A DNA stretch of 64,000 nucleotides from positions 341,083-405,082 of the forward strand of contig CAXXGJ010000002.1 of the NCBI GenBank assembly GCA_963677895.2, in the 5' to 3' direction. Of this stretch, positions 48,001 through 51,000 are shown piece after piece. Position numbers: made by a program. Every line of letters starts with the position of its first letter. Positions within the stretch are counted from its first letter, which is position 1. This DNA is from Treponemataceae bacterium. GTDB lineage: Bacteria; Spirochaetota; Spirochaetia; Treponematales; Rectinemataceae.

Positions 48001-51000
48001 TGTTCTGCACGGCTTGGCCAGCCGCGCCCTTCACCATATTGTCGATCGTCGAAACGACGATTCCCGTCCTGCCGTTCGAGGAAAGATGGACGGAGATGTC
48101 GCAATAGTTCGAGAACTTCACGTTCCTGTTGCTGGCGGTCGCGCCGAGGGCGAGCACCCGCACGAAAGGTTCCTTCGAGTAGAACGACGCGTAGAGATCG
48201 CGCAGGCTTTTCGCGTCCATGGCTTTCTTCAGGCTGAAATAGATCGTGCTGACGATGCCCCTGTTCATGGGCGCCAGATGGGGGGTGAAGACGGAGGAAA
48301 CCGCCTCGCCGGCCATAATCGAAAGATAGCGGTCAATCTCGGGCTGATGCCGATGGGCGCCCACCTTATAGGGAGAAATCGCGTCCACGCAATCGACATA
48401 ATGCGTCGTCTGGCTCGGTTCGCGACCGGCGCCGGTGAGGCCCGACGCCGAATCGATGATGATGCTGCCGGAGTCCGCGATCCCGGCCGAGAGCGCCGGA
48501 TAGAGGCCGAGTTCGGCCGTGGTGGGATAGCAGCCGGGATTGCCTATGAGGCGCGCCTTGCGGATTTTTTCCCTATTGAGTTCGGGCAGCCCGTAGACGG
48601 CCTTGGCATGGAGCTCGGGCCGCGTATAGCTCTTTCCGTACCATGCGGTATAGGTAGCTTCGTCATCGCCAAAACGAAAGTCGGCCGAAATGTCGATGAA
48701 AAGTCCGCCTTTAGCCAGGCATCGTTCGGCCGCGGATTCGGCGAAGCCGTGGGGCAGGCAGGAAAAGAGAATGTCGGAGGCTTCGATCACCGCCTCGGCG
48801 CTTTCGAGCATCATTGGGGGATTGCCATAGCCCGTTTGATCCGGACTGCCGAAAGAGGGATACACTGAACCGAGCGCCTTGCCTTCGAAACTGACGGAGG
48901 AAAGGTGGAGCTGCTTGGGTTCCGGGTGGGCGAGCAGTATCCTGGCCAGTTCCGCTCCGGCATAGCCGGAAGCGCCAAGAATGCCTATCTGAATCATCCA
49001 AATCCTCCTGGACGGGGCTGAACTCCCGAGGGAACAATACCCCCAGGCTTTCACTATGGATAATAACCCTCAAAAAAATGAAGGTCGAGCTATTAATGTC
49101 TGTGGTTGTGGCAGGTGGCGGTCGACGCCTTACCTACGAACGGAGTAGAGTCGCGGTGTGCGCGGCTCGAACCCGAAAGTGAGAAGTGTTGGAAGGTAGA
49201 CAGGATAAGAGCGTTTCATATGCTCCTCCCAGAATGGAATAGAAGTAATAAAATATAAATGAGAAAGTATGTCAACTGGGTAGTGAATAATTATACGTAT
49301 TATGCAATGATTATGCGGCAATTTCTGGAAATATTTCCCGGAAAGCTCCGACGGCGATCTTTTCGGCACGCAATCTGGAGGTAAACATGTCCGACGACAA
49401 GCATCTATACCTTATCCTGCATCCCAACCACTCCCTCATCGCTTCGCAGATGGACCCCGAGCATTTCATACGGCACTATGTCCAGGGTTCGACGCGCTAT
49501 TTCGAGGGAAGGCTCATTTTCGTCGAAGTCGATCCCGGTTTCAGGAACGCTTATTTCGATATCGATGGAGCCTACGCCGAGCTTGTCCCCCACGAGGACG
49601 GAAGACCCAAGGCCACGAAGTTCATCAAAAGCTACCGTGTCCTCGAACACCTGGATTTCGATGCCTTGGGCAGCCTCTATCTCTGCAATTCGATGGGGGA
49701 TTACGTCGAGCTGAAAAGCGCCGAATTCAACCCCGAAAACGATCCCGAAGAGTTCCGCATCATGCTGGAGATCAATCCCGTCAAATTCATCGTGCTGACC
49801 AAGTACGATTTTCGCGAATACGGACGTTTCATCACCGATCCCCACAATTCCAAGGGGGCGCCCAAGATGTTCTTCGCCCAGCTGGAATTCAACACGGACG
49901 AATTCATGAGGGATTATGAGGAAAACCCGCTTATCCGAGGCTTTGTTCCGGGGATTCATCCGGCCAGGCTCCATAGCGCCGTGCAGGAAGTGCGAACCAC
50001 GCCGGGAAAATTCGTGAAGGGGCTTATCCCTCGACTGTCCGATCGACAGAATCTCATACAAAGTGCTCAAGGACGGCTTCATGTTCGCCGGCGAAGGTAA
50101 ATACAGATACTATCCCCTGCTCAACCTGGATGAGGTGGAGCGCAAGTTCTACCGCTACTGGAAATCGATGTAGTATTATGGATGGGGAGGCGCGCGCGGG
50201 CTTGATGCGGCCTCCCATTCTCGCTATCGTTCTTTTTCTCATATGGCAAGAACATACCTTGATACGGGGCGCCCGATAGTCGCCCTCGCAACGCCGCCGG
50301 GGCGCTCGGCTCTGGCTGTCATCCGCGCTTCCGGAGCGAAGGCGATCGAACTTTGCGCCCGGTGCTTTTCCGCGGGTCAGGATCTCGAAACGGCGCCTGG
50401 CTACACAATGCGCCATGGTTTCCTGATCGACCCCGACAGCGGCGAGCGCGTCGACGAAGTCGTGGCCGCCGTCTTCCGGGCTCCCCGGTCCTTCACGGGC
50501 GAAGACTCCGTGGAAATTTCCTGCCACGGGTCGGCGGCGGTAACGAGCCGCGCGCTCGCCGCGCTGGAGAAGGCAGGCTTCGCTCCCGCCCTGCCCGGGG
50601 AATTCAGTTTCCGGGCCTTCATCAACGGCAAGACCGACCTCGTCAAGGCCGAGGCCATCAACGAGCTGGCGGGAGCGCAATGCGAATCCGCCAGGGAAGA
50701 TGCCCTCCTGCGCCTGAGCGGGGTCCTTTCCAAAGAATTTTCGGCGCTGCGCGACGAAATGCTGGACCTCCTGGCCGTCGTCGAGGCCCACCTCGACTAC
50801 CCCGCCGAAGAGGGCGCCGACGAGGACAGCGAAGCCCCCGAAGGCTTCGAGGACCGCGAGGAAAACCCTCCCCTGGATGGCAAGGCTCTCGGCCTGCGAG
50901 CGGCGCCTCGCCGCGCTGTCGCGAAGCTATATAGGAGGAAGACTGAGACAGGAGGGCGCCCTCGTGGTGGTCGCCGGCCGGCCCAACGCCGGCAAATCCA

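Follow-up and report, generated by a model that had tools for sequence, protein, structure and literature searches.

Introduction

To our knowledge, bacterial arginine biosynthesis is taught as being controlled by ArgR, with T-boxes in some Firmicutes, and not by leader peptides. Leaders such as trpL, hisL, leuL, thrL and ilvL sense charged tRNA through cognate codons, and so does the his attenuator of the genome studied here. The element described in this work, a short ORF upstream of argC in a member of the Rectinemataceae, resembles them in its cognate leader codons. However, it has no conserved terminator or antiterminator, and its sensor codons abut the stop codon.

Leader ORFs without an intrinsic terminator have been described for several systems. 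In tnaC and speFL (orf34) of E. coli and in Bordetella cruR, as predicted here, control is exerted at the last codons of a short uORF, and a C-rich stretch in or just past the ORF can be covered by a stalled ribosome, according to a review of Rho attenuators published in 2025 (PMC12360218). These three depend on a conserved peptide and a free ligand for stalling and have catabolic or transport targets (PMC12360218), whereas here the peptide is not conserved, the targets are biosynthetic, and the signal is apparently a shortage of charged tRNA-Arg. In that review, the uORF rows rest on ligand-binding peptides or on leader refolding, and his appears only with the wording "may combine" (PMC12360218).

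Actinobacterial cysteine leaders share with the present element the cognate codons at the stop, the lack of a terminator, the pyrimidine-rich composition, the occurrence at several operons of one pathway and the leaderless starts, and Rho was first proposed for them too (Seliverstov 2005, PMC1262725); that study lists arginine under T-boxes. The mycobacterial polycysteine sORFs (Canestrari et al.) differ in that the tested case involved SD sequestration by a very stable duplex and not termination (10.1101/834739). Here, a duplex was found at three g13 loci with no family-wide excess, and one to three codons of one synonymous type replace the long run. S. aureus rbfL is an Arg-codon uORF that senses arginine (PMC13009471), and E. 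coli argL-argF has a uORF at an arg gene (10.1101/511675). Both of these uORFs overlap the RBS or the gene that follows and reduce its translation (PMC13009471, 10.1101/511675), whereas here 35-263 nt separate the leader stop from the downstream gene, and starvation is expected to induce expression.

In the open-licence texts that our literature search covered, we found no case of an arginine biosynthesis operon controlled by a leader peptide, no mention of arg leaders in spirochaetes and no terminator-less arginine leader of the present form. Comparative attenuation surveys by the Lyubetsky group could list such leaders already, as could prediction tables in supplements. New here is a second leader, at argG. 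The proposed action of the element is that of a uORF-Rho attenuator or a polycysteine-type leader, and it lacks the features that define the classical (terminator) and arrest-peptide families.

Results and discussion

Leader ORF upstream of argC

The window is a 64,000-nt stretch of contig CAXXGJ010000002.1, and coordinates are positions within it unless another contig is named. A preliminary description had placed an unannotated 29-codon leader with its own SD about 130 nt before argC, at the head of an argCJBD operon. Our analysis agreed on both points: the ORF ends in GTT CGT AGG TAA, its stop is separated from the argC ATG by 132 nt (Table 1), and the genes of the operon all scored above the cut-offs of their NCBIfam profiles (TIGR01850, ArgJ NF003802, TIGR00761 and TIGR00707). 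The leader peptide itself matched no NCBIfam profile, and its exact sequence was absent from a collection of 15 billion proteins. An Rfam scan of 46000-51000 gave nothing near the gathering score and thus no T-box or riboswitch.

Table 1. Features of the argC leader region in the window
Feature	Position	Strand	Remark
ARG-box-like palindrome, putative ArgR operator	49284..49297	-	a short way upstream of the -35 box; weaker second copy at 49293-49306
-35-like TTGACA, putative promoter	49270..49275	-	invariant in 14/14 aligned loci
Leader Shine-Dalgarno GGAGGAG	49223..49229	-	invariant in 14/14 aligned loci
Leader ORF, 29 codons	49130..49219	-	ATG at 49219, TAA at 49130; G-poor and C-rich at all three codon positions
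Putative sensor codons CGT (49138-49136) and AGG (49135-49133)	49133..49138	-	adjoin the stop
Mini-hairpin GGCG-N5-CGCC	49117..49129	-	directly 3' of the stop; clade-limited, 21/51 loci
C/A-rich, G-poor, unstructured tract	49093..49116	-	3' portion of the putative rut site
Two distal hairpins, 49065-49086 and 49025-49048	49025..49086	-	possible pause or boundary elements
argC Shine-Dalgarno AGGAGG	49004..49009	-	sequence
argC	47939..48997	-	ATG at 48997; first gene of argC-argJ-argB-argD, operon to 44539

The palindrome close to the promoter ranked 4th of 61 genome matches to a matrix built from the argC promoters of other genera. ARG-box-like palindromes with at most two mismatches to the consensus flanked the promoters of 37 of 51 loci. 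The -10 box is uncertain in the clade of this genome, where TTTNAT occurs at 17-nt spacing; other genera have CATAAT, CATAGT or CATTAT. On the opposite strand, a divergent 237-codon ORF (49387-50100, +) matched no NCBIfam profile, and a similar N-terminus is found upstream of argC in several relatives.

Conservation and codon choice at the argC loci

We searched 69 genomes of the family. argC was matched in 59 of them, and the 5' end was present at 56 loci, after those of G016 and G054 (5' end missing) and G066 (weak paralogue only) had been dropped. Leaders were called with a codon-blind rule, devised after the first loci were known, that takes, within 25-95 nt past the TTGAC box, the first ATG preceded by a strong SD. 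It returned a leader at 51 loci in 17 genera, with the ATG always 56-65 nt past TTGAC. L113, where the contig ends before the promoter, raises the total to 52 of the 56, so that the conservation within Rectinemataceae proposed earlier holds on a larger set, although the family genomes are kin and the counts are not independent events. The four loci without a leader are L016, L018, L139 and L140. Lengths range from 29 to 47 codons rather than the 29-39 first given, and the stop lies 49-263 nt ahead of argC (51 loci).

The similarity among these ORFs is concentrated at the end. Arg occupies the penultimate position in 49 of the 51 argC leaders, the last position in 40 and position -4 in 13; the former statement that the penultimate codon is always Arg therefore has two exceptions, both of which end in CGT. 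CGT is the penultimate codon in 41/51 and is found among the last three codons in 50/51. Of the 106 Arg codons at the three terminal positions, 77 are CGT, compared to 32 of 182 in the remainder of the leaders and 10.4% genome-wide. For background, 143 of 1618 long genes have a penultimate Arg, and 14 have a penultimate CGT. The argC leader peptides are otherwise unrelated between clades.

The tRNA-Arg anticodons of this genome are GCG, UCG, CCG, UCU and CCU. There is no ACG, so that CGU is wobble-read and is probably the most starvation-sensitive Arg codon here. E. coli, by comparison, uses an inosine tRNA for CGU. In a pattern search of the family, GCG and UCG arms were recurrent, and four scattered ACG-like strings, of candidate status, were the only ones seen.

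A second leader upstream of argG

In the same genome, argG starts at 9596 of contig C14 and is followed by argH. A 27-codon ORF at about 9443-9526 (+, locus L149) lies 69 nt ahead of it and ends in CGT CTC CGT CGT CGC TAA (R-L-R-R-R). This leader is probably leaderless, and several ARG-box-like repeats cover its promoter. Leaders at argG were chosen by an Arg-based rule, which selected 44 of 59 family loci; L190 proved spurious (a leaderless argG), leaving 43/59. The end of the ORF is near-invariant in DNA, with CGC at -5 in 34/44, CTC at -4 in 31/44 and CGT at -3 in 39/44. The starts vary: some genera have an SD with GTG, TTG or ATG and others no SD, and some leaders are as short as about 10 codons.

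At eight argG loci, an ATG in frame with the Arg end is located 6-7 nt past the -10 box, and in genus g20 six loci have this promoter geometry directly ahead of the ATG of argG itself. Because the start of argG in g20 occupies the same position, real leaderless translation of the argG leaders is supported; the comparison argues for a genuine leaderless start at the predicted +1 ATG and for loss or gain of the leader as a cassette. An apparently leaderless argG mRNA, with the ATG at the predicted +1, was noted at L168, L184, L186, L187, L190, L214 and L215 (g20) and also at L213, L161 and L189.

In the 51 genomes in which the argC and argG loci are both known, 33 have both leaders, 14 the argC leader only, 4 the argG leader only, and none has neither. 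Cognate codons at the 3' end of an sORF thus occur at several operons of one pathway (argC, argG and one argJ), as in the polycysteine type. Judged from sequence comparison, the two-operon arginine leader system is conserved and real. Other genes of the pathway in this genome include members of the OTCase family; carA had no match in the assembly, which is 92.8% complete.

Specificity and phylogenetic range

We applied a range rule that combines a terminal CGT, an upstream start and a C-G skew of at least 0.2. It matched 48/56 argC and 35/59 argG regions of the family and, for three further families of the order, 1/1, 8/23 and 1/11 argC regions. Outside the family, it matched 0 of 29 argG regions of the class, and on non-spirochaete argC it matched 1/69, by its look the tail of an upstream gene. 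Antisense controls gave 0 matches in all spirochaete sets (0/56 for family argC) and 3/69 in the non-spirochaete set. Two argC loci of family f4, L025 and L297, have a different short SD-less leader that starts M-N/K-K-H-R-Y-R-P.

A gene-blind scan of GTDB contigs with an 18-mer consensus of the RLRRR-stop end found at least 117 loci. Among the matches listed, 16 have spirochaete titles, one of them (L381) titled Rectinemataceae, and 15 of the 16 precede argG (12), argC (2) or argJ (1); these arg genes were identified by eye from N-terminal sequences, in one case from seven residues only. The argJ case is L359. For the other 101 matches listed, many of which had flanks of 300 nt only, we recognised no start of an arg gene downstream. 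Since some spirochaete records may duplicate family genomes, the scan tests specificity and adds no numbers. In one match titled Patescibacteria (L393, 300 nt around the match), the surroundings of the RLRRR-stop are strongly C-rich but no arg gene follows; this match is probably due to chance.

A crude genome-wide uORF scan returned 45 candidates, with the argC leader as its sole recovery, the leaderless argG and weak-SD his leaders being missed. A terminal-CGT scan of the genome gave 11 rows, two of them at argC, and lost argG to the downstream-skew filter. No end-codon leader was found in this genome ahead of ilvH-leuA, ilvB, argR or two OTCase-family genes. A loose pattern search of the family was largely noise, and the 30 loci inspected yielded argC and argG cases only. 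A strict phylum-wide pattern matched in 2 of 401 genomes and missed the present genome itself.

Base composition and search for terminators

Over the 51 argC loci, the region from about -90 to +45 relative to the stop contains more C than G, at all three codon positions, with a skew of 0.3-0.6 that is broken only at the Arg codons and the stop. The C-rich, G-poor tract that had been described downstream of the ORF is indeed present there, and it spans the ORF as well. At third codon positions of the argC leaders, the frequencies are 0.46 for C and 0.16 for G, and G-ending synonymous codons are under-used in most families. In the bin +10 to +19 past the stop, C, A and G account for 0.44, 0.29 and 0.12, respectively. 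The post-stop tract is unstructured (folding z of about -0.3) and contains CCAC in 30/51 loci. Within this genome, only 3.4% and 2.1% of intergenic windows attain the skews of the two arg leaders, and the his leader has no such skew.

The small GGCG-N5-CGCC hairpin reported after the stop occurs in 9 of 17 genera at argC, and its four pairs never vary and thus offer no covariation support. As a general part of the element it was rejected, since it is present in 21/51 loci only. The distal argC spacer folds better than its shuffled versions across the family (mean z -2.3, 19/38 below -2); distal hairpins were not seen at argG (spacer mean z -0.3).

A standard terminator scan of the argC spacer in the window found none, in agreement with the earlier claim that a U-tail terminator is lacking. 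That claim needs some qualification: a lenient filter passes 6/51 argC and 2/43 argG spacers, and the window is among the six, with the hairpin at 49065-49086 followed by TTATTAT. This T-tail is not kept in neighbouring genera. The leader ORF with cognate codons is thus the one feature shared with classical attenuators; no conserved intrinsic terminator with a U tract was found among these spacers, and a consensus fold of 14 clade loci contained no mutually exclusive antiterminator. As a positive control, hisG of this genome is preceded by a classical histidine attenuator (contig C21:126248-126405, +, locus L150) whose 30-codon leader contains HHSHGHH and is followed by a GC-rich hairpin with a U tail, a textbook terminator.

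The long argC spacers of L015 and L136 (genus g7) share a palindromic element, an inverted repeat of the ACAGAGTGACGAAA type that may be a small insertion, and the L015 spacer also has a terminator-like hairpin.

A candidate mechanism and its alternatives

We consider it very probable, from comparative evidence, that the leader senses charged tRNA-Arg and controls the arg operons, because, by the established logic of attenuation, a biosynthetic operon whose translated leader contains cognate codons responds to the level of charged tRNA. The position and identity of the Arg codons, the fixed start geometry, the second and seemingly independent leader at argG and the exclusive link to arg genes strongly support this part of the preliminary description. 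On the other side, CGU-CGU was read fast in Salmonella in rich conditions (PMC4046918).

The complete chain, a translation-coupled attenuator that senses charged tRNA-Arg and uses Rho as the effector, has in our judgement an even chance of being correct; within it we infer translation, stalling, the sign of control and the role of Rho. ArgR would gate the promoter, and ribosomes would load on the leader. With ample Arg-tRNA, the ribosome would pass through the terminal CGU codon(s) and be released at the stop. This would free the leader ORF and about 40 nt past the stop, a stretch that is rich in C, poor in G and weakly structured, for Rho to load on, and Rho would stop the polymerase ahead of argC or argG or shortly after it has entered the gene. 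Under a shortage of Arg-tRNA, a ribosome waiting with CGU in the A site and the queue behind it would cover the stretch, so that the operon would be transcribed. Somewhat more tentative, and a little short of an even chance, is the wider picture of a pathway-wide arginine "ribulon" of Treponematales, in which a starved ribosome at 1-3 wobble-read CGU codons against the stop would mask a rut site with neither a terminator hairpin nor an arrest peptide. This device would have been rebuilt at argC, argG and argJ with three kinds of start (ATG with an SD, GTG with an SD, and leaderless) and would act on top of ArgR repression.

Both argR and rho are present in this genome. rho was matched in 65 of the 69 family genomes, which, as rho is near-universal, is weak support for its involvement; it was not found in G010, G053, G059 and G064, and G010 is 94% complete and has the leader. 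By composition, the RNA in and next to the uORF is rut-like (C-rich, G-poor and weakly structured), and Rho prefers A/C and YC, which suits the C/A-rich tract (PMC12360218). In favour of Rho is also that this post-stop tract is unable to pair with the SD. Against it, some spacers are as short as 35-60 nt and leave little room before the next RBS. The earlier proposal of Rho-dependent attenuation thus keeps the support of the rut-like composition, the missing conserved terminator and the occurrence of rho, with SD sequestration as a rival.

In that rival, the sensor is the same and the output is translational: the ribosome-free, pyrimidine-rich leader would pair with the argC or argG SD, stalled and queued ribosomes would free it, and Rho would contribute secondary polarity only. 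There is precedent in the mycobacterial polycysteine leaders, for which SD sequestration was shown (10.1101/834739). Anti-SD-like 4-mers peak at -24 to -13 before the stop, within the ribosome footprint, CCUCC is kept almost invariantly in the argG leaders, and RNAalifold predicted, in one clade, a 5-bp consensus helix between the nucleotides before the Arg codons and the argC SD. At three g13 loci (L126, L132 and L137), the Arg-codon end of the leader can form a duplex of 10 bp or longer with the argC SD. The mean probability that the argC SD is paired somewhere within the free leader is 0.52, and masking of the whole leader raised its accessibility from 0.22 to 0.37, with a gain in 16/51 argC and 9/42 argG loci (L162, with its Arg codons outside the last three, was excluded from the folding tests, leaving 42 argG loci). 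However, a mask of the stall footprint raised SD accessibility in just 3/51 argC loci, with 2 losing, and in 2/42 argG loci, and the opening energy of the argC RBS was lowered by more than 1 kcal/mol in 12/51 and raised in 6, compared to 10 with the control mask. Own and swapped leader-RBS duplexes were alike (argC +0.1 and argG -0.25 kcal/mol), in a test that is blind to a generic SD helix. SD pairing of real and shuffled leaders was 0.57 against 0.48 at argC (p 0.10; 29/51 loci) and 0.45 against 0.40 at argG (24/42 loci), with at most two loci per genus. The argG SD, AAGGAG, allows four pairs only, and sequestration leaves the C/A-rich post-stop tract unexplained. We therefore regard translational output as a serious but doubtful reading; genera may differ in output mode, and equilibrium folding sets the limit of these tests.

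The other alternatives appear less probable. R-L-R-R-R ends the argG leaders and many argC leaders, and Arg-Leu-Arg is a known stalling motif of antibiotic leaders (PMC8632094), so that the R-L-R(-R-R) end might be an arrest motif, or the peptide might bind arginine, ornithine or citrulline in the tunnel, like SpeFL, TnaC or fungal AAP. Arrest of this kind is improbable, however. A conserved ligand-binding arrest peptide was not found: the peptides vary in length from about 10 to 47 codons and have no common sequence ahead of their end, and a ligand-binding peptide is unlikely because only that end is conserved and some argG leaders have about 10 codons. In many argC leaders, CGT follows V, Y, S, A or P and position -4 is not Arg; the synonymous choice of CGT, CTC and CGC is conserved although a peptide signal needs none, and product-induced stalling over a rut site would presumably act in the wrong direction for biosynthetic genes. 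Of similarly low probability is an output at the level of mRNA stability or polymerase pausing, with the stalled ribosome shielding a nuclease site or blocking 5'-3' decay. For Salmonella orf34-speF, pausing at two Arg codons has been proposed to give an RNase G-resistant fold (PMC6386406), and the distal argC hairpins could be processing or pause elements; but no conserved alternative fold was detected in the consensus folding or masking tests, and the strong C-over-G bias is a Rho rather than a nuclease signature. Very unlikely, finally, is a degenerate intrinsic attenuator or the absence of any regulatory function. The first distal hairpin of the window and five other spacers do pass the lenient filter for T-rich tails, but the T-tail is not conserved and no antiterminator exists in the consensus fold; moreover, the antisense and non-spirochaete controls are nearly empty, and the link to arg genes is exclusive.

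If the Rho-dependent reading is true, the element supplies a missing simple case, in which tRNA starvation is read directly by rut masking. Masking of rut by a starved ribosome was hypothesised in 2005 for the actinobacterial cysteine leaders, and the mechanism was translational where tested (PMC1262725, 10.1101/834739). The cassette of 150-250 nt is easily tested in a reporter and would then also be a compact arginine biosensor. The comparison also provides a search rule for terminator-less attenuators, namely a cognate codon at the stop combined with a C-over-G skew.

The g13 leaders L126, L132 and L137 end in CGC/CGT CCT TAA, which is similar to the boxA that closes tnaC of E. coli.
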